Position numbers and translations under genes: made by a program. This document shows positions 18,361 to 33,827 of a stretch of 64,000 nucleotides of DNA, piece after piece. Source of the stretch: a virus; the IMG/VR virus record IMGVR_UViG_3300045988_125874. One strand, written 5' to 3'. Under the pieces are notes generated by a model, which worked only from the letters and a program-made list of their open reading frames with translations, searched no databases and was not told the DNA's origin. Position 1 is the first letter of the stretch, and each line of letters begins with the position of its first letter.

Positions 18361-19977
18361 TTATTGGAAATGACTATAATATTCAATTGATTTTTCAGCT
18401 ATTTTTTGTGCCTTTTTATCAGCTTTGTCTAATACTCGCCATTCTTCATAATATTTATGTCCTAATCCTCCTTCCATACCTGTTTGCTTCTGTATTTCTT
18501 TCCAACGTTTTTCTCCAAGAATTCTTTTTGCGTCTTCCGGCTTTTCTTTGGCATAAATCATACGTTCTGTATTAACTTGAATTTCGGCAATTAATCCGTT
18601 AGATGTTTGGATATTGACTATATTGCCACTATATCCCATAAAGGATTCCGGTTTTTGCCTTTTCAGTCGTACAAACGAATCGCTTTCAGATAGTTCGTTT
18701 AATACTTGATCTATTTGTGATCTGGGGACTATAATTGTCGTCCTAACTGCGTCTTTTATATCGTATGGAGTTATACCTTCCGTTGTAACCTTTCTTGTTA
18801 TTGATGAGATGCTTTTGTAATTGATTGGCGTTACAAATCCTTTATTCTTTTTAGCTATGGATTCCGCTAAACTTTGTACCTCATTCCCGACTAAAGAAGC
18901 ACGATTAACAAGCTCTTTAGCTGAATTCTCGGTATTTATATTTTGAACAATTGATTTGTTATCTCTCAAAAAATAAGGTAGGGTGTTTCTTTTCTGGGCT
19001 TTCTCGATCTTTTGACGGTTTTCGAGTACCCATTTTTTGAATTCGTCAGGAACATCCTTTACTTCATTTATACTTTCTGTGGAAACATCGCTTCGTCCAT
19101 CCCATTCCCAGAATTCTTCTTCTGTTTTGAGGATAGGAACTTTATAACATAAATCATTCGGATGCCATCCTGTCCAGGTGAAGTCTTTAGGATATTTACC
19201 GGCAAGTGTGTCACAAATGTCTCCATGTGGCATACGACTATGATGAGAAGAACTTAGTTTTATTTCATATCCGACTACGAAATCCATTTGTTTCCATCTT
19301 TCGTTTTCGGCTGTTCTATAAGCCATGTTTATTTCTGAACGGGCTAGACGTATGGAACGATACTCACAATCTTGTATATGTTCAGCACTGCCATATCTGT
19401 CTTTGTAATCTTTTTGCAGTAATGGGAAATCAAGAAGATACTTACTTATTTGCTTACTCAACGTAACAGCACTGGTTCCTTTTTGAATAGCGCATGAGAT
19501 CGCAGCCTCCAGTTCTTCTTTGTAGATCATAGATTGCTGCCAGAGTTTTGCAGATATATTGAATCCTTTATCTTTTCGGTTCTGGAATGCTTTCAAAGCA
19601 TCTGAATTTGTTTGATATAGTATTTTATATTTTTCTTTGTCAACTTGGGCGTTATATGCTTTTAGTACTTTGTTTGCTATTAAATCCTGCGCTTCATTAC
19701 TATTCTTCCATTCTTCGGTAGTACCGCGATAGATAGTTGCATTTATATCCTCTACAAAGTGCTTCTGTATATCGTCAATTTGCTTTTTAGTTTGAGGGTA
19801 GTCAGACCATTTAAACGGCTTATCGCTATCAGGGGAATATTTAGTACGTGAAACGGCTTTGGCAGCTTCCAAATTCAGGGTATCGTATATTTGCTCAACG
19901 AGGGCTACATATCTGTTTAATCTCCCGTTGAGTTCTTGGTACTTCTTTTTCTGATTTGGAATCTTGGGTTTTGCCAT
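18361..19977 (-). CDS. MuF/SPP1 gp7-like head morphogenesis protein fused to a C-terminal RelA/SpoT-like nucleotidyltransferase domain
   Basis: MuF core: SSSHHSRMPHGDICDTLAGKYPKDFTWTGWHPNDLCY. C-terminal part: YKSISSITRKV...DIKDAVRTTIIV...FMGYSGNIVNIQTSNGLIAEIQVNTERMIYAKE resembles the RelA_SpoT synthetase motifs (KS..SI..K, D..R, GY...H, EIQ.RT). Confidence 0.75.
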   Translation of the reverse strand: MAKPKIPNQKKKYQELNGRLNRYVALVEQIYDTLNLEAAKAVSRTKYSPDSDKPFKWSDYPQTKKQIDDIQKHFVEDINATIYRGTTEEWKNSNEAQDLIANKVLKAYNAQVDKEKYKILYQTNSDALKAFQNRKDKGFNISAKLWQQSMIYKEELEAAISCAIQKGTSAVTLSKQISKYLLDFPLLQKDYKDRYGSAEHIQDCEYRSIRLARSEINMAYRTAENERWKQMDFVVGYEIKLSSSHHSRMPHGDICDTLAGKYPKDFTWTGWHPNDLCYKVPILKTEEEFWEWDGRSDVSTESINEVKDVPDEFKKWVLENRQKIEKAQKRNTLPYFLRDNKSIVQNINTENSAKELVNRASLVGNEVQSLAESIAKKNKGFVTPINYKSISSITRKVTTEGITPYDIKDAVRTTIIVPRSQIDQVLNELSESDSFVRLKRQKPESFMGYSGNIVNIQTSNGLIAEIQVNTERMIYAKEKPEDAKRILGEKRWKEIQKQTGMEGGLGHKYYEEWRVLDKADKKAQKIAEKSIEYYSHFQ

Positions 19978-26532: not shown

Positions 26533-26894
26533 TCTTCATCGTCTGGCAATTCTTGCATTAATTTCTCAAATGGATTAATATTCAAATCTTGCTCTACTTT
26601 TTCAACGTAACCGCGATGCTTCATTTTAGTCTTACTTAACCAAATAAGCATGGTGTTATCTTGTTCCGTCAAAGCTTTAGCAAACATTGTCGTTTCTAGC
26701 TTATCATAGAAACTTTCTTCTACTTCTTTCCATTTTTCGGCAAAATCTGGATCATTCGATTTCCATTTATAAGCAATGGAGCGTGAGATTTCTACAGCTT
26801 CACAAGCTGCGGTAACATTCAGCATCCTTGCTTCCAATGCTTTTAAAAACTTAGCTTTCTTTTGCCTTGTATTAAGCCTGTACTTCTGTGCCAT
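26529..26894 (-). CDS. Terminase small subunit (HTH)
   Basis: KAKFLKALEARMLNVTAACEAVEISRSIAYKWKSNDPDFAEKW is a typical TerS HTH. ATG at 26894 is preferred. Confidence 0.7.
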   Translation of the reverse strand: MAQKYRLNTRQKKAKFLKALEARMLNVTAACEAVEISRSIAYKWKSNDPDFAEKWKEVEESFYDKLETTMFAKALTEQDNTMLIWLSKTKMKHRGYVEKVEQDLNINPFEKLMQELPDDEE

Positions 26895-27582
26895 CTTTAC
26901 TTCCCTCCAATACATTATTCACAATTTCCAACATTTTGCATATACTCAAAGCCTGTGCTTTGATTTTGTATTTCGCCTGAACTTTTGCGGATACTTCATT
27001 TAATCGATACATTGTTTCCATGTCCAATAAAGTAAGGTTGCCAAGTTCTTTTTCTGAATAGCAATCCAATGTTTCCATTAATTTGTCAAATGAGACTTTC
27101 TGTGTATCTACAAACATAAGAGTTACTGGAACAATTTCATTATTCGGCATTTCAACTGTATAGTTGATGTCTTTAACGCTTTCTAGTACTTCATTACTGA
27201 TATGCGCATACTCTTTCAGTGCGACATCCGTTATTTCATCAAGAAGCTGTTTTATTATCTCTTGATCATCTTGACCGTTTATCGAATTTGCGCTTAACTG
27301 AATAGCCCGTATTTCATCATTGGAAATATCTTTTTCATTAATATACATAATATGACATGATGTCAAACCAGCCATATTTGCCGCTTGTATTCTATGGTTC
27401 CCAGAAACAACAGTATAAGTTCCGTTGTCATGTTCAACACAAAATGGGACGCTGCTTAACTGGCCATCTCTACGAATATTATTCACGAGTTGGTTAAACA
27501 TGGATTGCTCCATAAATCTTGCATTCTTCTTTATCAACTTGATAGAAGAAAGCGGAACTTCTCTTATTTGAAACTGCTTCAT
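26872..27582 (-). CDS. ParB N-terminal domain protein
   Basis: VPLSSIKL...RRDGQLSSVPFCVEHDNGTYTVVSGNHRIQAA (ParBc motif GxxR / GNHR). ATG at 27582 removes the 128-nt overlap with the HNH gene. Confidence 0.7.
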   Translation of the reverse strand: MKQFQIREVPLSSIKLIKKNARFMEQSMFNQLVNNIRRDGQLSSVPFCVEHDNGTYTVVSGNHRIQAANMAGLTSCHIMYINEKDISNDEIRAIQLSANSINGQDDQEIIKQLLDEITDVALKEYAHISNEVLESVKDINYTVEMPNNEIVPVTLMFVDTQKVSFDKLMETLDCYSEKELGNLTLLDMETMYRLNEVSAKVQAKYKIKAQALSICKMLEIVNNVLEGSKDGTEVQA

Positions 27583-27586
27583 ATTT

Positions 27587-28330
27587 TTATTCTTTAAATT
27601 TCCAAATAAATCCTCCTGCTGTATGGTATCTTGGTCTTTTCCTACAGCACATACCAATATTGGCACTACATACTCCTGTTTTTCTTGATGCGTCCATAAT
27701 AGAATTATATTCATTCAATAAATCACCATTAGAATTATATTGAAGAACCCTACGTACTTTTAGCTCTATCTTTATCTTCTTGGGAAATTCTTCTGATATT
27801 TTGCGACACCAATAGAAACTACCTGCATGGTACTGCTTTCCATTTATACATTGATTTATAGAAGTGTTTAGTACTCCTGTTATTCTTTCGGCTTCTGCAC
27901 CAGAGTTATACTCTTTTAAGAAATTACCATCCAAATCATATTGTAAAACCGGAATAGAACAAATTTCTTTTGTCTTTATATTTCTATTTCCATATTGGCA
28001 ATTATACTTATGTGTACAAAATTCCAAATTATCGACTGTATTATTATTTTTACATTCATCCTTATGATTGACTTCTGTAAGATTTAAAGGATTATCTAAA
28101 AAAGTTTCAGCTATTACTTTATGTACATAAAAACGCTTGACTACATTATTCTTGCATAAACACAGGAATAGGTATCCTTTTTTATTATCACGAGGTAGCA
28201 ATATTTTACCGCTATAGAATCTTCTTCCACCTTTGTATGGGACAACCCTATCTAAGGAGCGTATTCTACCTAAAGACGATGCTTGATATAAACCTTCGTA
28301 CCCCTTAATATTTTTCCAAATTTCATCCAT
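27587..28330 (-). CDS. HNH homing endonuclease (NUMOD4 + HNH + two IENR1-like repeats)
   Basis: IWKNIKGYEGLYQASSLGRIRS (NUMOD4); VNHKDECKNNNTVDNLEFCTHKYN (HNH); two repeats with the AGSFYW / AGGFIW endings. Confidence 0.8.
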   Translation of the reverse strand: MDEIWKNIKGYEGLYQASSLGRIRSLDRVVPYKGGRRFYSGKILLPRDNKKGYLFLCLCKNNVVKRFYVHKVIAETFLDNPLNLTEVNHKDECKNNNTVDNLEFCTHKYNCQYGNRNIKTKEICSIPVLQYDLDGNFLKEYNSGAEAERITGVLNTSINQCINGKQYHAGSFYWCRKISEEFPKKIKIELKVRRVLQYNSNGDLLNEYNSIMDASRKTGVCSANIGMCCRKRPRYHTAGGFIWKFKE

Positions 28331-28334
28331 ACAT

Positions 28335-30422
28335 TTATTCCTTTCTCGGCTCATCACCGTATTTTTCTACAAATGCTTTTAAAATATCATCTAAGTTGCC
28401 ACGAATACCTGCATCTTGTATGTAATGGAGTTTACCAACGCAACGTTCATGTAATTTGAATACACCACGATATTTCATACTTACAGGTTTATCGGTGAAC
28501 ACGGAAGTAGCAATAACACCACATTGATGTTTATATCTTATATCCAGTTCTGATTTAAATTCTGATGAAAGAACGCCCATTATTAGCAATCGGCTCAACT
28601 TAGGCAGAGGGTGGTCTATGACAAAATCCGATTTCATCCAAACTGCATCCATGCCGTATTTGCTGACCTTCAGGAAGTCAAACATACAAGCTCCGAACAC
28701 GTAATCATCCAAGAACCACAAATAACAGAACGGAGCTGATCCGAGTATGATGCCTTTCTTCAAGTAAATCATGCGCAGATAATCAATTTCTGCCATAGAA
28801 GCACGAACAAACCGGAGTTTGCTATTATTTGTAAGTACGTAATCGTCTGGCAACCGTTTATATTTTAGAGGGATGATAGTCCGCTTGTTAAAACTGCTGT
28901 CTCCACTTTCTACCACATTAGACCAAATATATGTGCGTTGGTCTTTGAATACCTCTCTTCTGCCCATAAATCCATGCTGCGAGAGAGCCATGTAATTAAC
29001 TTGTTCTTCATCTATTTCTGCATATTTCGTTTTAGTTCGTTCTTGAGATCCAAAATCATCCAATAAGAAACGCTGTAATGCGTTGCTTGTGGCTTTCATA
29101 CCGGAATGAAATTCATTCTGATAGATCAATATGTCATTCTCTTTGCAGTTAAGAATTGCATCTGATATATCAGCACAATAAAATACTTCAATAGACTTAC
29201 TTTTAAGGCTGTCTACGAGCTTTTGGTAACGTTCCGTATACTTCTTATGGTAATGCTCCAATTTTGCCATAAAATCGTCATAAAGCGACTTATGGTAAAT
29301 ATCTTGTGAGTTCTTATGCTTCTTGATGGCATTGAACAGATGGATAGTGGCAATAATTTCAGCCGGACTTTCAGACTTGATATTCAGAAACTCATATTCA
29401 TCATTAAAACGCAGTTCTTTTATCTCTCCCTTGATTGCCTTATACATCATGTAGATAAAATACTCCTTTGTATACACCTTAATCTCACGGTTGGTAAGTA
29501 TTTGCTCTATATCCATATAGTATGAGTTTACCACATGAGCAATATCAAATTTGGCCGCTTCTTTCTTGATGAAGGAAAGCATACGATTAGTTTTCTTAAA
29601 CATGGAGCCTACTATCGTAACATTGTCCGAGTGTTCTGCTGCCCAAAGTAACGGTTTATGTCTTTGGGGAACCTTGGAATAGTCTATATGGAATGTCTCA
29701 AGACATTTGTCAATAGTGGTGAGTTGCTTATACTCTTCTATGTCTTCATGTAGGTAGGCATATTCTACAAATGAATACATGAATTTGATTGTTTCCAGCA
29801 CCTTGTCGAAGTCCCATGAACTATTGAAGATACGGAATTCTGCTGTTCCTATCTTTTCAATAGAACATAAGTTGAGCCAGTACCGGATATGTCCTCTATC
29901 TGACCCATTACTAAAAACTTTCAGTAAATTCTCAATATTATCTGCTTCAAGAACTCGTTTTACAACATCCCAAGGTGGACTGGGTACGAGATATTTTGTT
30001 TCCCACCACTCGGCAATGTCAAATATTCGTTTGATTGGATAAGCGGTGTAGTAGGAGAGGGCAAACAAACGTTTGATAACATTCAAGTCCATATCTTTGA
30101 TGTATAGATGTGCATCAAAACCTTCATTCCACATGAGATAACTTCCTGCATCTCTCATGGTCTGAATAAAATTCTTCAACTCCTGCAAATCTTCTATACA
30201 ATAATGGTATGGGCGTGTGTTTATTTCCCCGCCAAATTGACCGTGATGCGTAACTGCCGATCCATCCGAGTTATTCATCATGGTTAGCTTGTTATCCGTC
30301 CACTTGTAACCCGATGGAAGAGGAATGTGCTCTTTATCACCATCAGCGAACTCCAGTTCCATGCCAAATGTGCGATTGGCTATATAGTCAATCCACGGTT
30401 TATCTATATTCGTGTTCTGCAT
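28335..30422 (-). CDS. Amidoligase (Amidoligase_2 / GS-like) N-terminal domain protein with a ~450-aa uncharacterised C-terminal region
   Basis: FGMELEFADG...DGSAVTHHGQFGGEINTRPY...GFDAHLYI...IGTAEFRIFNSSWDFDKVLETIKFMYSFVEYA follows the putative-amidoligase pattern (G.E.EF, DGS...GE..., H.H, GT.EFR). Confidence 0.65.
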   Translation of the reverse strand: MQNTNIDKPWIDYIANRTFGMELEFADGDKEHIPLPSGYKWTDNKLTMMNNSDGSAVTHHGQFGGEINTRPYHYCIEDLQELKNFIQTMRDAGSYLMWNEGFDAHLYIKDMDLNVIKRLFALSYYTAYPIKRIFDIAEWWETKYLVPSPPWDVVKRVLEADNIENLLKVFSNGSDRGHIRYWLNLCSIEKIGTAEFRIFNSSWDFDKVLETIKFMYSFVEYAYLHEDIEEYKQLTTIDKCLETFHIDYSKVPQRHKPLLWAAEHSDNVTIVGSMFKKTNRMLSFIKKEAAKFDIAHVVNSYYMDIEQILTNREIKVYTKEYFIYMMYKAIKGEIKELRFNDEYEFLNIKSESPAEIIATIHLFNAIKKHKNSQDIYHKSLYDDFMAKLEHYHKKYTERYQKLVDSLKSKSIEVFYCADISDAILNCKENDILIYQNEFHSGMKATSNALQRFLLDDFGSQERTKTKYAEIDEEQVNYMALSQHGFMGRREVFKDQRTYIWSNVVESGDSSFNKRTIIPLKYKRLPDDYVLTNNSKLRFVRASMAEIDYLRMIYLKKGIILGSAPFCYLWFLDDYVFGACMFDFLKVSKYGMDAVWMKSDFVIDHPLPKLSRLLIMGVLSSEFKSELDIRYKHQCGVIATSVFTDKPVSMKYRGVFKLHERCVGKLHYIQDAGIRGNLDDILKAFVEKYGDEPRKE

Positions 30423-31278
30423 ATCTCAACTTGACTAATGATTTATAATCAGGGACAAAACGAACCACATCACCAATGTGATAATCCGAAACATGGTCAC
30501 ATTGCATTATTGTATATTCGCTGGAGCTATCTACATACTTCAAATTGGTATAATAGGGAATTCTGCATTTAGCCATGTCCGCCATTGAATAACCGCAATC
30601 GAGAATGAGTTGATTACGCTCTGGATAGATGCCTATTATTCTTGTTTGTAGTTCTATCCCATTAAAGCCTTTTTTCTCTTCATTATTGCAATATGGAATA
30701 GTGCCAAACAGCATATATTCTCCTATTCGCACATCACTTATGAAGTTTGGAAGTTTGTCATACTGTCCGAGCCAAAAACTTCCTCCTAAACTGATGGATT
30801 CAATATATCCTTTTAGGTTGTCCCAGATGTCGTATAATCGCGACATTGGCGGGTATTTGTCATTGAGGCAACCGGAAGTAATCATACCGTATATATGAGC
30901 ATCTGAAAGCATCCTTATTTCGTTAGCTAGTTTGCTTGCTTCATAAATGCTTAAACCTTCTCTGTTATCGTAAGCGTCAATTGGAATGTAGTAGTTGTGT
31001 ATTCCTTGGCAACCCTCTCCATTAATAGTGAGATATTTCCAAGAGTCAGCAAATGATGTTACTACTGCACCTATATTATCTTTTGTCGCTTTCCCAATAG
31101 AATAACATACGCTATCTTTCAAATGTAACCCGAAAATCTTATTTCTTATTTTATCCGCTATATGCTCATGAATATCTTCATAGAAGTCCTTAAACATTAA
31201 TGAAATGGGAACATTAACAAACGATTGCGCCTTTTCAATGTTCTCTATTATATTCTTGGTATAGACAATAACTTTCAT
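30400..31278 (-). CDS. Fold-type III PLP enzyme, alanine-racemase-N/YhfX-like (predicted amino-acid racemase family)
   Basis: IPIDAYDNREGLSIYEASKLANEIRMLSDAHIYGMITSGC...ISLGGSFWLG...VRIGEYMLFG...LILDCGYSMADM resembles Ala_racemase_N/COG3457 motifs. Confidence 0.5.
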   Translation of the reverse strand: MKVIVYTKNIIENIEKAQSFVNVPISLMFKDFYEDIHEHIADKIRNKIFGLHLKDSVCYSIGKATKDNIGAVVTSFADSWKYLTINGEGCQGIHNYYIPIDAYDNREGLSIYEASKLANEIRMLSDAHIYGMITSGCLNDKYPPMSRLYDIWDNLKGYIESISLGGSFWLGQYDKLPNFISDVRIGEYMLFGTIPYCNNEEKKGFNGIELQTRIIGIYPERNQLILDCGYSMADMAKCRIPYYTNLKYVDSSSEYTIMQCDHVSDYHIGDVVRFVPDYKSLVKLRYAEHEYR

Positions 31279-32174
31279 AGCTCCCACTTTAAGATTAAAC
31301 GTTCAATCCCTTTGTATTTGGTATCACGTTTGAACGAGAACCCGGCATTGGTAAAACTCTTGATACTTGCTTCATTTTTGGGTGAGGTCATGGCAAATAC
31401 CTCTTGTGCACCGTTTGAAACCAATTTTGCAAGATTAGCATTGAGTAGAATGTACTGAAAGCTATTACCCCTATAATCTGAACGAACGAAACATTTATCT
31501 ACGTAGGCAGTACCGTATTCAGTGAAATATGCAAGCGAATAAGCAACCAGCTTATCATTTGTCAATAATCCGTAACTGCAACCAGATTGCAAGCACTTGA
31601 CTATATCTTCCGGTTCCGAAGCGAAACACATATCAGGATCAGAGAGCAACTTTTGCTCAATTTCTTCTATGGTAGTAATGTCAGACATAGATAAAGCTTT
31701 CACTTGCATATTGTATTCTATGCTTCCTTTATGCGTCGGGAACAATGGTTCGTAACGGTCAATCCATGCTTTAGAAAGGAATGTGTCTATATCGACTTTA
31801 GGCAATAATGCTTTTCTATAATTGTCGAAAATGTCTAGTACAAATTCTTTATGCTTAGTAAGTTGCTCATTTTTCAACGGACATTTACTGCTACGGAAAA
31901 CAAGACCTTTTTTTACCGACTTTACCCACAAAGGATAAGTTCTACACATGATAGGTTTGTAGCCATTATCACATGATTTACAGTCTTTAGCGATACATTT
32001 AATCTTTTTACCGCCAAAGTAATCATCATCTATAATCTGTAAATGGGAGATTTCTTTTTCATACCCGTCAAGTTCATGGGGGAGAATTACAATATGTCCG
32101 TCCGATCCGAACGAACAACACTTCCAACCGCAGCCGGAGTTTTCACATGCTCTTATTAGTCCTTTTTCGTCCAT
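31275..32174 (-). CDS. YkgJ-type Cys-cluster domain fused to a GNAT acetyltransferase domain
   Basis: N-terminus: CENSGCGWKCCSF...KPIMCRTYPLW (CxxCxxCC ... CR.YP). C-terminus: FVRSDYRGNSFQYILLNANL...AMTSPKNEASIKSFTNAGF (GNAT motif A region). Confidence 0.6.
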   Translation of the reverse strand: MDEKGLIRACENSGCGWKCCSFGSDGHIVILPHELDGYEKEISHLQIIDDDYFGGKKIKCIAKDCKSCDNGYKPIMCRTYPLWVKSVKKGLVFRSSKCPLKNEQLTKHKEFVLDIFDNYRKALLPKVDIDTFLSKAWIDRYEPLFPTHKGSIEYNMQVKALSMSDITTIEEIEQKLLSDPDMCFASEPEDIVKCLQSGCSYGLLTNDKLVAYSLAYFTEYGTAYVDKCFVRSDYRGNSFQYILLNANLAKLVSNGAQEVFAMTSPKNEASIKSFTNAGFSFKRDTKYKGIERLILKWEL

Positions 32175-32217
32175 ATATTTAGGTTGTATATAACTTCATA
32201 TACATTTTGCGTTAAAT

Positions 32218-32243
32218 GCCTGTCGAGCGTATTCCCGACAGGC
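32218..32243 (-). terminator. 8-bp GC-rich hairpin between the tRNA-like array and the enzyme cassette (terminator or processing signal)
   Basis: gcctgtcg-N10-cgacaggc. Confidence 0.35.
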
Positions 32244-32399
32244 CTAAATACAAATCCATCATTTTTCAAGCTACTTGCAAGAACACTTATGCAATCTATT
32301 CGGCTTCTTTACAGTCGTGTCAGATGGCAATTTCCATCACCCCGTAAACTGCACAAGCTTTAATGCTCTTGTTTTCGCTTATCGCTACTATAAGGGTTG

Positions 32400-32586
32400 A
32401 GGGATAAGCAGGATTCGAACCTGCACAAGTATCGTCTGCTTTCTCGTTTTCGTCCGTAGATTGGTTATCCTACGATCTTTAAACTACTCGACCTGTTACT
32501 AACAGCCGGTCTTGATGACATCCATTCTTATGTACACTTGGAACTTCCGTTCATTTAGTCTTAGCTCCCTATGACCATTTTATCCC
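32400..32586 (-). tRNA. Oversize tRNA-like gene (187 nt): perfect acceptor halves and a canonical T-arm, with ~110 nt excess internal sequence
   Basis: 5' GGGATAA (rc of 32580-32586) is fully complementary to 3' TTATCCC, which follows GCAGG-TTCGAAT-CCTGC. The internal region holds several hairpins, including GAAC-GGAA-GTTC. No anticodon could be assigned. Confidence 0.35.
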
Positions 32587-32590
32587 TTAG

Positions 32591-32741
32591 TAGTGGTAGC
32601 AGGATTCGAACCTGCATGATAGGAGTTATTTTGCTGTTACATTTAAAAACAGCCATGCCCGTTTATTTTTACAACCTTAGCCTAGGGTTAACCTATCTAT
32701 AAACATGTCACTTTAGCGTCTACTAATTCCGCCATACCACC
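32591..32741 (-). tRNA. Oversize tRNA-Leu-like gene (151 nt) with ~65-70 nt extra sequence between the D-arm and T-arm
   Basis: The 5' half GGTGGTATGGCGGAATTAGTAGACGC is close to the bacterial tRNA-Leu acceptor/D-arm. The 3' half is GCAGGTTCGAATCCTGC-TACCACT-A (A73). Acceptor 7/7 paired (one G-U). The middle region is 99 nt versus about 33 expected. Confidence 0.45.
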
Positions 32742-32785
32742 AAATTTGCGTGTCTTTCCACGCTGTCAGATTGTTTGCAGTACCA

Positions 32786-32861
32786 ACTAAATGCAAGGAA
32801 TCGAACCTTGTCGCTTACTTTACACAACCTCAATCAACGAGCCGAGTTTAACGGCATTCGA
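32786..32861 (-). tRNA. tRNA-like gene, normal length (~76 nt), imperfect stems, anticodon loop compatible with UGA (Ser)
   Basis: T-arm CAAGG-TTCGATT-CCTTG. D-like hairpin GCCG-TTAAACT-CGGC. Loop (A/G)TTGA(G/T). One acceptor mismatch, and the D hairpin abuts the acceptor strand. Confidence 0.35.
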
Positions 32862-32930
32862 GCGGAAACAGGGAATCGAACCCCACTCTTTGGCTGGAAT
32901 GCCAACGCTCTACCGATGAGCTATTTCCGC
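32861..32930 (-). tRNA. tRNA-like gene, 70 nt, near-canonical cloverleaf but with a 6-nt anticodon loop ATTCCA (UCC-Gly or CCA-Trp)
   Basis: GCGGAAA-TA-GCTC-ATCGGTA-GAGC-G-TTGGC-ATTCCA-GCCAA-AGAG-TGGGG-TTCGATT-CCCTG-TTTCCGC-T. Confidence 0.55.
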
Positions 32931-32990: not shown

Positions 32991-33371
32991 CTATTGACGG
33001 TTGGCTAATAATTCCGGATTGTCATAAATATTACCTGCATATCTAATTCCGAACATATCTATCATTTGTCCTATTGGTTTGTTCCCAAGATTTTGAGACA
33101 GAACTTCTAATAGCACAAAAGAACCGATTTTATCACTATACACTACCTCACATAATACGCCAGCACATTCAACTAAATCATGCTCATATATTTCTTTCCC
33201 GCTCTTGTCACACAAGCCGGTGAACTGCCCAAGAGTATTTTCGTCTATTTTTTCAACGTCATTATCGTGCAACCAAGTTCCATCTCCATCTTGAATAAGC
33301 GTATAAGAATCTCTTATCCATCCCTTACCATCAATGCGCTTCCCTCTAAACTTAATCCTTCTCATACTCAA
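32991..33371 (-). CDS. YopX family protein
   Basis: IKFRGKRIDGKGW...LGQFTGLCDKSGKEIYEHDLV...AGNIYDNPELL is the YopX signature. Confidence 0.8.
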   Translation of the reverse strand: MSMRRIKFRGKRIDGKGWIRDSYTLIQDGDGTWLHDNDVEKIDENTLGQFTGLCDKSGKEIYEHDLVECAGVLCEVVYSDKIGSFVLLEVLSQNLGNKPIGQMIDMFGIRYAGNIYDNPELLANRQ

Positions 33372-33772
33372 AATAAACTTGCTTGTTCGTATTTAGGTTC
33401 CTTTTTCTCAACTACTCCGAACTCTGTTATTTCAATGCCAGTCTTTTCAGTAAGCCATTTTGCCAAAATATGACGATGGCAGAAATCACCCGGTTTTTCG
33501 TAACAGCATAGAGCGACATCTTTACCTTCACTGTGTCGTTGGATAGTTTGAATCAATTCTTGCGGATTGACTTTTGCAAGAACATCATTCAAATACATAC
33601 TCGTGTACTCTTCATAAGTCCATTTGTCATCTAACATATATCTTCTTGGTGCAACCTCTATAATTTGAGGTGCGTTATAAAATTTTGGTCTGCCTAAAGC
33701 GACACATATCATTTTGATGTTCGCTGCTGCCAGTTTTCTGTAATTTCCAAAATATGATGTATAAATCCTCAT
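33368..33772 (-). CDS. DUF488-like protein
   Basis: MRIYTSYFGNYRKL...VALCCYEKPGDFCHRHILAKWL. ATG at 33772 is preferred (the track start would overlap the promoter motif). Confidence 0.5.
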   Translation of the reverse strand: MRIYTSYFGNYRKLAAANIKMICVALGRPKFYNAPQIIEVAPRRYMLDDKWTYEEYTSMYLNDVLAKVNPQELIQTIQRHSEGKDVALCCYEKPGDFCHRHILAKWLTEKTGIEITEFGVVEKKEPKYEQASLF

Positions 33773-33788
33773 TGCTTTAATTTTATGG

Positions 33789-33827
33789 TGTAAAGATACA
33801 AAAAGTGGCGTAAATTCAATCACTTTT
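33789..33827 (-). promoter_or_regulatory. -7 box (TATCTTTACA) plus copy 3 of the 27-bp dyad motif
   Basis: tgtaaagata at 33789-33798; aaaagtggcgtaaattcaatcactttt at 33801-33827. Confidence 0.6.

Follow-up and report, generated by a model that had tools for sequence, protein, structure and literature searches.

Organization of the tRNA-like array

The DNA analysed in this work, referred to below as the window, is a 64,000-nucleotide (nt) stretch of the IMG/VR virus record IMGVR_UViG_3300045988_125874, which probably comes from a gut phage with a host in the order Bacteroidales. The window carries an array of four transfer RNA (tRNA)-like units, numbered 1 to 4 in Table 1, which is flanked by a YopX-like open reading frame (ORF) and by an ORF of 299 amino acids (aa). 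As read from comparison of related sequences, the locus is made up of four RNA genes of tRNA origin, encoded by the phage, arranged as cassettes in an array and under structural selection. An original prediction, made from the letters of the window by itself, had described four non-canonical tRNA-like units at positions 32400-32930, and this description was confirmed, as were the boundaries given for the two oversize units (lengths of 151 and 187 nt, complementary 7-nt ends and a gap of 4 nt). The T-arm motif GGTTCGAWTCC was found four times in the window, always on the minus strand (32411-32421, 32602-32612, 32797-32807 and 32872-32882); its mean number in shuffled sequence was 0.03, and four copies were reached in 0 of 100 shuffles. 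For comparison, more than 450 related viral loci were collected, and labels beginning with L refer to these loci. Hundreds of related contigs are present in IMG/VR, and among GenBank phages neither the array (blastn) nor the surrounding 20 kb (megablast) had a match. In literature on six-nucleotide anticodon loops, phage tRNA-like RNAs and Bacteroides phage non-coding RNAs, no description of these RNAs was found.

ARAGORN and Rfam at the gathering threshold, tools named in the original prediction, called a single gene of 70 nt (32930-32861), which is unit 1. At permissive thresholds, unit 3 reached 23.9 bits with the Rfam tRNA model over part of its length (cut-off 29), and the matches of units 2 and 4 were confined to the T arm. 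Some homologues of unit 3 scored above the threshold of this model (RF00005; 41 and 40 bits), only with a 65-nt insert at the anticodon region, and several oversize units were aligned with it from end to end with the anticodon region taken as an insert. When the window region and eight diverse loci were searched against Rfam at permissive thresholds, only tRNA and T-arm fragments were matched.

The acceptor stem (7 bp), the D arm (D-like in unit 4) and a canonical T arm are all retained in units 1, 3 and 4. In a tRNA this is the portion that is recognised by the CCA-adding enzyme, by RNase P and the enzymes of 3'-end processing, and by many synthetases. None of the three units as tested has an anticodon arm of the canonical form, with a stem of 5 bp and a loop of 7 nt containing U33 and R37. 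The position of this arm is occupied by the 6-nt loop AUUCCA in unit 1, by the stub AAAG-UGACAUG-UUUA in unit 3 and by a 3-4-bp hairpin with the loop GGAA in unit 4, and in units 3 and 4 the short stub is accompanied by a large structured insert at the variable-arm position. Normal triplet decoding by the array units is therefore unlikely.

Table 1 Coordinates of the array, its structural elements and neighbouring genes in the window
Feature	Position	Strand	Remarks
DUF488 (N3a subclade) protein	33368..33823	-	upstream of array; co-occurs with unit 1 and Dam-like–GNAT gene
YopX-like ORF	32991-33371		flanks array
Unit 1	32861..32930	-	70-nt tRNA-Gly(UCC)-derived gene, loop AUUCCA; Rfam tRNA 53 bits; ARAGORN anticodon 'tc'
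Unit 2	32742..32860	-	119-nt spacer element, non-cloverleaf
Unit 2 T-arm-like hairpin	32841-32855	-	GCCG-TTAAACT-CGGC
Unit 2 T arm	32794-32810	-	CAAGG-TTCGATT-CCTTG
Unit 2 small hairpin	32778-32789	-	TAG-TTGGTA-CTG; loop YYGGTA in variants
GAAAGA hairpin	32748-32763	-	GCGTG-GAAAGA-CACGC; before unit 3
Unit 3	32591..32741	-	151 nt; tRNA-Leu-type scaffold; family A
Unit 3 acceptor	32735-32741 with 32592-32598	-
Unit 3 D arm	32716-32732	-
Unit 3 stub hairpin	32700-32714	-	at anticodon-arm position
Unit 3 stem b/b'	32692-32697 with 32618-32623	-	GATAGG with CCTATC; at variable-arm position
Unit 3 insert	32624-32691	-	68 nt, within b/b' stem
Unit 3 T arm	32599-32615	-	U48 present
Unit 3 discriminator	32591	-	A73
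Unit 4	32400..32586	-	187 nt; family B; starts 4 nt after unit 3 end
Unit 4 acceptor	32580-32586 with 32401-32407	-	GGGATAA with TTATCCC
Unit 4 D-like arm	32556-32577	-	GG in loop
Unit 4 short hairpin	32541-32552	-	GAAC-GGAA-GTTC; replaces anticodon arm
Unit 4 long-range stem	32534-32540 with 32426-32432	-	CAAGTGT with ATACTTG; around swappable module
Unit 4 T arm	32408-32424	-
Unit 4 discriminator	32400	-	U73
Leader	32175..32399	-	225 nt, array to first enzyme gene; starts with CAACCCTTATAGTAGCGATAAGC
GNAT protein	31275..32174	-	299 aa, Cys-rich N-terminal part; Pfam PF00583, E 6e-7
D-serine dehydratase / alanine racemase-like fold (weak)	30400..31287	-	295 aa; PF14031, E 1e-3, below cut-off
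Amidoligase + Dam-like + phage GNAT-like fusion	28335..30422	-	695 aa; PF12224, PF22555, PF22559
NUMOD4/NUMOD1/HNH homing-endonuclease ORF	27587-28357	-	overlaps both neighbouring genes
ParB_N-like protein	26872..27714	-	3' of Dam-like–GNAT gene

Unit 1, a glycine-type tRNA with a 6-nt anticodon loop

It had been claimed that no unit folds as a standard tRNA. For unit 1 this holds at the 6-nt loop, but outside it the unit is a good cloverleaf with a 4-nt variable loop. The gene reads GCGGAAA...UUCC...UUUCCGC-U, giving G1:C72, C2:G71, G3:C70, U73, C35 and C36, and thereby carries the full glycine identity set of bacteria, which consists of these same elements (PMC9976931, Table 1). A tRNA of this type with a 6-nt loop was called by ARAGORN in 233 of the collected loci, most of which were retrieved through the array or its neighbouring genes, so that the count is not an unbiased survey. 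Over these loci unit 1 is near-invariant. The loop ATTCCA is present in 21 of the 22 distinct unit 1 sequences from the first 160 loci, and the pair 31:39 is variable (C:G, U·G or C·A). When the anticodon arm of unit 1 was scanned for in one genome for each of 185,579 species, one true copy was obtained, on a 5.3-kb contig binned as Paraprevotella.

Among related Bacteroides-type phage contigs, 83-nt tRNA-like units with a defective anticodon region were also observed at L303:2707-2789 and L317:8359-8441, with a mismatched anticodon stem or an 8-nt loop ('tgcg').

Unit 3 and the family A RNAs

The 5' end of unit 3 reads GGTGGTA-TG-GCGGAATTAGTAGACGC and its 3' end GCAGGTTCGAATCCTGC-TACCACT-A, and the 99 nt between its D arm and T arm, as originally noted, can be read directly from the sequence. 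Its homologues, termed family A, comprise 50 distinct full units (165 occurrences in all collected loci) of 104-220 nt, none of which has the canonical length of about 85 nt. In 19 distinct scaffolds from which the insert had been cut out, 93.4% of the cells were paired and both sides had changed in 9 of 16 pairs. None of 500 shuffles was as good, and slid controls were 25-59% paired.

In line with the original prediction, unit 3 has a tRNA-Leu-type acceptor and D arm, a T arm and A73, together with U48. The family consensus of the 5' half (nt 8-26, with GG18-19) is identical to the D arm of E. coli tRNA-Leu, from which the window copy, with the D loop AAUUAGUAG, differs only by G18->A. The D loop AAUUGGUAG occurs in 43 of 50 units, a figure biased by the search pattern; U48 is present in all 50 and A73 in 43. 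It has been reported that bacterial leucyl-tRNA synthetase (LeuRS) needs A73, A15:U48, G18G19 and A20a, needs neither the anticodon nor the variable arm, and still charges a minimal tRNALeu without an anticodon arm (PMC9976931). Family A therefore appears to keep the whole anticodon-independent leucine identity set, with G18->A in the window copy.

At the anticodon-arm position, family A units have a stub hairpin of the pattern CTAAAG-loop-YTT(A)TAG, in which the hypervariable loop has 7-10 nt and neither U33 nor R37. From one insert class to another, compensatory changes are seen in the b/b' stem (GATAGG/CCTATC, GAGTGG/CCACTC and GATGG/CCATC). Within the inserts, the helix 32686-32690 with 32672-32676 of unit 3 covaries in L303 and L373, and other helices covary likewise (ATCGG/CCGAT with ACCGG/CCGGT, GGG/CCC with GAG/CTC, and AACC/GGTT with GAAC/GTTC). 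The GTTTAT/ATAAAC pairing listed in the original prediction is lost in the homologues L303, L342 and L373, and a candidate CATG/CATG pairing was unsupported by homologues. Insert classes vary among close phage relatives and are swapped between two scaffold types; the insert of family A is apparently kept from being an anticodon arm and is otherwise freely variable.

Could the oversize units be tRNA genes with a novel short intervening sequence that is removed by splicing? With introns of 0-250 nt allowed and a lowered threshold, ARAGORN proposed a tRNA-Lys(ttt) with a 61-nt intron in unit 3 and a tRNA-Phe in part of unit 4, and the Rfam tRNA model spans some units with one large insert. However, these ARAGORN solutions are forced; their anticodon stems contain mismatches, and at the default threshold none of them is reported. 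In none of the 50 family A units does any contiguous excision yield a 5-bp stem and a 7-nt loop with U33 and R37, and the loops at that position are of 7-10 nt and hypervariable. No match to Intron_gpI, Intron_gpII or a ribozyme was obtained at E<=1-10, and with 57-170 nt the inserts fall short of the size of group I introns, as had been pointed out before. The hosts are bacteria (Bacteroides), and to our knowledge bacteria lack the archaeal/eukaryotic splicing endonuclease. Splicing, one of the explanations offered with the original prediction, is thus considered very improbable.

Several observations on the inserts are recorded here. Small ORFs in large inserts (e.g. in L162, AAGGAG and ATG, 25 aa) were rejected as genes; they are not conserved, and the apparent ribosome-binding site is in a hairpin loop common to L017. 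A poly-G tract has 7, 8, 9 or 10 G in otherwise identical units of 186-189 nt (L301, L306, L347 and L360), which could be slippage, phase variation or an assembly artefact. A third scaffold type occurs as the second array unit in L211, L293, L044, L017 and L162 (AATGAYAYAG-TG-GCGG...ACGC...GCAGG-TGYAAGT-CCTGC-CTRTRTCATT). It has a non-canonical T loop, a 10-bp acceptor-like stem and inserts of about 75 to about 180 nt in units of 130-232 nt; the L211 unit of this type shares its insert with the Leu-type unit of L008. Against the remainder of the window, antisense matches to the inserts of units 2, 3 and 4 were no better than E 0.28. Since no target was found within the window, antisense RNA acting on the own phage was ruled out for the window.

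Unit 4 and the family B RNAs

Family B, to which unit 4 belongs, comprises 33 distinct variants of 156-193 nt, in which the enclosed module occurs in three versions. Covariation is found in the acceptor stem (U5:A68 to C5:G68, G2:C71 to A2:U71) and in the T stem (C:G to U:A, A:U to G:C). The unconstrained minimum-energy fold of unit 4 yields the acceptor, D-like, T and long-range stems; for the interior two fold models compete, with no single consensus. The GGAA tetraloop hairpin noted earlier is present in unit 4, but its closing pair is C·A in most family members. A family B unit is often located directly 3' of a family A unit and is also frequently alone, in recombination and replication modules. 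In stand-alone copies the 3' end either directly adjoins the start codon of the following ORF or lies before a terminator. G3:C70 was found in 31 of the 33 variants and G3·U70 in two.

Both families are independent and widespread as stand-alone genes in phage contigs, in early and recombination gene modules. A scan with the 5' half of family A gave at least 119 viral stretches, in which most units had no unit 1 within 1.2 kb upstream. A tie of the oversize units to the 299-aa GNAT protein was considered and rejected, as multi-unit arrays occur with either downstream enzyme set; both families also occur far from any GNAT. A GenBank search that used a family A locus as query matched Bacteroides phage BS-TP2 (PQ571275.1), a cultured phage that infects B. 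salyersiae. Its family A unit of about 113 nt (L407:3263-3375, approximately 19548-19660; GGTATCG...CGATACC-A) occupies an unannotated 153-nt gap between the DUF2303 and NinG genes.

In units 3 and 4 a large insert emerges from a tRNA-like domain where the variable arm would be, a topology like that of transfer-messenger RNA (tmRNA), and miniature molecules of this kind would enter stalled ribosomes and add a tag. Possible a-b-a'-b' pseudoknots were seen by inspection in the inserts of L008 and BS-TP2, G3·U70 is present in the two unit 4 variants mentioned above, and ARAGORN gave permuted tmRNA candidates at an 80% threshold. Against this, only the T arm is matched by the Rfam tmRNA model (7-12 bits; gathering score 47), no ORF is conserved because every reading frame is shifted by insertions and deletions, a D stem is present and G3:C70 is the rule. 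Known tmRNAs are also longer than these units (104-220 nt). We regard this explanation as extremely improbable.

Variation of the array among relatives

In relatives the array, taken from unit 1 to the motif CAACCCTTATAGTAGCGATAAGC, has a length between 71 nt (unit 1 alone, 39 distinct sequences) and 834 nt. Extra canonical tRNA-Phe, -Ser or -Cys genes are carried upstream, and units have been gained, lost or fused at T-arm or acceptor sequences. The arrays of L009 and L215 are recombination-broken chimeras with unpaired stems; thus, part of the locus does turn over. Such chimeras were absent from the original prediction, as were the full set of leucine identity elements of unit 3 and the link of unit 1 to a predicted DNA-modification module described below.

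Decaying pseudogenes were among the explanations already suggested; in a fuller form of this view, the units would be functionless remnants of tRNA genes and debris left by recombination at a hot spot. This is in line with the highly variable array content and the chimeras, with the unpaired acceptor halves of unit 2, with G18->A in unit 3 of the window and with discriminators that follow the downstream junction. However, compensatory changes are found in the acceptor, D and T stems and in the insert helices, both families persist in single copy in many unrelated phage backgrounds including a cultured phage, and unit 1 hardly varies over its 233 loci. As a general explanation, decay is quite improbable.

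Unit 2, the leader and recurrent hairpins

Unit 2 had been described as a tRNA of normal length with mismatched stems. This was not upheld, since it is not a cloverleaf and only its T-arm hairpin is tRNA-like. In 22 distinct variants its putative acceptor halves showed no consistent pairing, and the T stem covaries (CAAGG/CCTTG, AAAGG/CCTTT, TATGG/CCATG and CGTGG/CCATG). Covariation is confined to the T arm, the second T-arm-like hairpin, the hairpin with the YYGGTA loop and the GAAAGA hairpin, whose stem occurs as GCGTG/CACGC, GCTTG/CAAGC and GCCCG/CGGGC, the last in BS-TP2. Judging from this pattern, unit 2 is best seen as a spacer cassette and not as a tRNA. In different phages (seen in the window, at L070:2665-2690 and at L407:3243-3258), tRNAs or tRNA-like units are preceded, at a distance of 4-6 nt, by a hairpin of the form GNNNG-GAAAGA-CNNNC, which may be a processing signal or a promoter-proximal signal.

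The leader is present downstream of every array, whichever enzyme gene comes next. Its hairpin GATGG-AAATTG-CCATC covaries (GATGG/CCATC, and GATAG/CTATC in L057), and the loop GGGAATACGC of its terminator-like hairpin at about 32218-32243 recurs in true terminators 3' of stand-alone unit 4 copies. The leader had no match in Rfam and may be a regulatory element.

These features are relevant to a possible role of the units in cis, as processing or regulatory signals ('tRNA punctuation') at which RNase P and RNase Z would cleave to separate or stabilise neighbouring mRNAs or to tune the downstream operon, with no function in trans. The units are on the coding strand within operons, the covarying GNNNG-GAAAGA-CNNNC hairpin is conserved before each unit, stand-alone unit 4 copies end at the next start codon or before a terminator, and a conserved structured leader follows the array. 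However, punctuation does not need a conserved Leu-type D loop, U48 and A73 or a full glycine identity set, nor structured inserts of 60-170 nt with covarying helices. This role is held to be improbable.

The predicted DNA-modification module next to unit 1

The constant enzyme partner of unit 1 is a Dam-like–GNAT protein, either in a fusion of the 695-aa type or as a 433-aa Dam-like + GNAT protein. The 299-aa GNAT is not a constant partner, as it is missing in L084-86 and L098-109. Three variants of the enzyme set were found, namely the 695-aa fusion with the 299-aa GNAT and a pyridoxal phosphate (PLP)-like protein, a 692-aa fusion with a dehydrogenase-like protein, and the bare 433-aa Dam-like–GNAT protein; unit 1 and the 225-nt leader are unchanged across all three. 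In a sample of 80 loci anchored on the YopX gene, the DUF488, Dam-like–GNAT and ParB genes were present in 26 of the 26 loci with unit 1, and all three were missing in 54 of the 54 loci without it.

Neither enzyme gave anything informative in a search of PDB sequences, and for the Dam-like–GNAT protein neither Mom nor any other PDB chain was matched at the sequence level. Residues 268-695 of the 695-aa protein were modelled with AlphaFold2, with a predicted local distance difference test score (pLDDT) of 88. Its N-terminal part resembles E. coli Dam and DpnM and its C-terminal part resembles GNATs, including Mom of phage Mu (8bv8; E 4e-4, template modelling score 0.50, rank 18).

The Dam-like–GNAT family was also sampled in three distant lineages (a Lysinibacillus genome contig, JGI-metagenome contigs for P0065 and a groundwater-metagenome Bacteroidetes contig). 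The ParB_N-like gene is located 3' of the Dam-like–GNAT gene in close relatives and in 3/3 of these lineages. A private tRNA as a general trait of the family was rejected, because the three distant members have no tRNA within 4 kb; a private tRNA is thus not needed by the enzyme family.

Further observations concern the module itself. A gene with Dam-like (PF22555) and phage GNAT-like (PF22559) domains is followed by ParB_N in every lineage examined (L294-L299, L098, L084 and the window), and the two may form a conserved two-gene DNA-modification pair. In some distant lineages the family is found near terminase or portal genes, and one member is named 'putative antirestriction adenine methyltransferase' in UniRef. 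The NUMOD4/NUMOD1/HNH homing-endonuclease ORF, which is located between the ParB-like and the amidoligase–Dam-like–GNAT genes, resembles a mobile insertion into the module.

Proposed roles of the array units

It has been reported that Mu Mom, a GNAT, moves glycine from Gly-tRNAGly to N6 of adenine in double-stranded DNA (PMC13219725; 2026). Based on this precedent and on the co-occurrence of unit 1 with the module, we infer that unit 1 may be a dedicated glycyl carrier. Taken together, the array units would be non-decoding tRNA mimics, with unit 1 as a glycyl carrier and units 3 and 4 as mimics or decoys, a reading held tentatively as a whole and given slightly less than an even chance. While the anatomy of the units and its evolutionary constraint are observed, the maturation, glycyl donation and mimic, decoy or carrier roles are proposed on that basis. 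The host tRNA machinery would mature the units into stable CCA-ended RNAs acting off the ribosome. Unit 1 would most likely be charged by the host glycyl-tRNA synthetase (GlyRS) and, by analogy with Mom, would most likely be reserved for donating glycyl groups to the Dam-like–GNAT enzyme encoded next to it, while being kept off the ribosome. This enzyme would acylate adenine in phage DNA as Mom does with Gly-tRNAGly; later steps, in which the adduct is elaborated, would fall to the amidoligase, the second GNAT and the PLP-like enzyme.

Units 3 and 4 are most likely aminoacylatable or protein-binding tRNA mimics, which could act as decoys or sponges for host factors recognising the tRNA acceptor and elbow, or as carriers. 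They probably entered the array by recombination at T-arm or acceptor sequences and not via a tie to the enzymes. The tRNA-scaffolded non-coding RNAs and tRNA-mimic decoys suggested in the original prediction are compatible with the conserved anatomy, and such functions are put forward here as candidates.

Unit 1 could instead be a decoding tRNA-Gly(UCC) whose loop was altered against a host anticodon nuclease and which still reads GGA/GGG, units 3 and 4 being decoys for a like defence. Its loop would then have 6 nt, or 8 nt with C31:G39 open, and the enzyme neighbours would be incidental. Phage tRNAs that counter tRNA-targeting defences are established (PMC12409363). The canonical tRNA-Phe, -Ser and -Cys in the array of relatives would mark a general tRNA hot spot, the variable 31:39 pair is compatible with an open 8-nt loop, and other anticodon-defective tRNA-like genes are found in related phages away from any GNAT. 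However, U33 is displaced in the 8-nt reading and position 38 is missing in the 6-nt reading, and neither form of the loop is known to decode efficiently. The co-occurrence with the modification module (26/26 as compared with 0/54) is also left unexplained. A decoding role is considered unlikely.

Several points weigh against the glycyl carrier and mimic or decoy roles. The co-occurrence of unit 1 and the module may reflect inheritance as one block and not function, and the YopX-anchored loci with and without unit 1 form distinct lineages. Mom is no better than other GNAT structural matches, the use of a tRNA by this GNAT is only predicted, and no tRNA was found within 4 kb of the Dam-like–GNAT genes in the three distant lineages. 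The 6-nt loop might impair the recognition of C35 and C36 by GlyRS. A 68-nt tRNA-like gene with a 6-nt loop ('ac') at L335:14191-14258, on another of the related Bacteroides-type phage contigs, lies beside RecT with no GNAT nearby. For the oversize units 3 and 4, neither a target nor a protein partner was found, folding-energy z-scores of -1.9 and -1.0 were unremarkable, and the 5'-half search pattern itself accounts in part for the conserved D loop of family A. Seven family A units carry U73, six of them at junctions at the array end, and G18->A in unit 3 of the window should weaken elbow formation and leucylation. The broken chimeras of L009 and L215 belong on the same side.

Significance and comparison with known systems

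On comparative grounds, the array represents three kinds of tRNA-derived RNA without a normal anticodon arm, each a conserved family missed by standard tools. Families A and B are two widespread phage RNA families that escape tRNA finders and are absent from Rfam 15; synthetase identity elements are kept in their RNAs and the anticodon arm is lost. They also account for intergenic gaps that look 'empty' in the annotation of many gut phage genomes. The work on Mom raises the question of whether viruses dedicate tRNAs of their own to nucleic-acid chemistry, for which this locus is a testable candidate. If the RNAs are decoys or carriers, they would form an RNA-based layer of phage–host conflict in a dominant gut bacterial lineage. 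A wider proposal, that Bacteroidales phages encode a repertoire of aminoacylatable, non-decoding tRNAs, is speculative and on balance rather unlikely. In it, a glycine-type carrier excluded from the ribosome would supply a Dam-like–GNAT enzyme that places amino-acid adducts on adenine of phage DNA, and a leucine-type RNA and its 190-nt companion would present hypervariable structured domains on a tRNA core, in an arms race with tRNA-recognising host factors. Since a family A member is present in the cultured phage BS-TP2, northern blots, charging assays and deletions are feasible.

The closest parallels to unit 1 are the staphylococcal non-proteinogenic tRNAGly species, donors for FemXAB, and the Mom system, as unit 1 has the glycine identity set and is located directly upstream of GNAT-family enzymes. 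In the staphylococcal tRNAs exclusion from the ribosome is brought about by changes in the T and D arms, whereas here it would come from the 6-nt anticodon loop. Mom is likewise a phage GNAT that transfers glycine from tRNA to adenine N6 in DNA (PMC13219725), but it uses host tRNAs, whereas here the phage would supply its own. The enzyme also differs, being a fusion of Dam-like and GNAT domains (PF22555, PF22559) that is not of the Mom family and whose use of tRNA is only predicted.

With tmRNA, whose helix P2 is at the variable-arm position, the oversize units share the acceptor, the T arm and a large insert in place of decoding elements, and both may be aminoacylated without an anticodon. 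However, the units are much smaller, have a D stem and show no tag reading frame, SmpB-type context or Rfam tmRNA match, and their identity is of leucine or unknown type instead of G3·U70. YrlA and other Y-RNA-like tRNA mimics (PMC4201824) are also phage or bacterial non-coding RNAs that mimic the T-loop/D-loop elbow. They have a closed 'acceptor', have their open ends in the Ro-binding stem and are linked to Rsr, whereas the present units are open-ended like tRNA; the neighbouring genes that were examined included no Rsr/TROVE gene, and the Rfam scans did not report a Y-RNA family. Family A can be seen as a natural parallel to minimalist tRNALeu substrates and to engineered 'tRNA scaffold' RNAs; it keeps the acceptor/D/T core and A73 and has a foreign structured RNA at the anticodon region. 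Those are laboratory constructs, whereas family A is encoded by phages, with a conserved junction (CTAAAG...YTTATAG, b/b' and U48) around inserts that differ between close phages.

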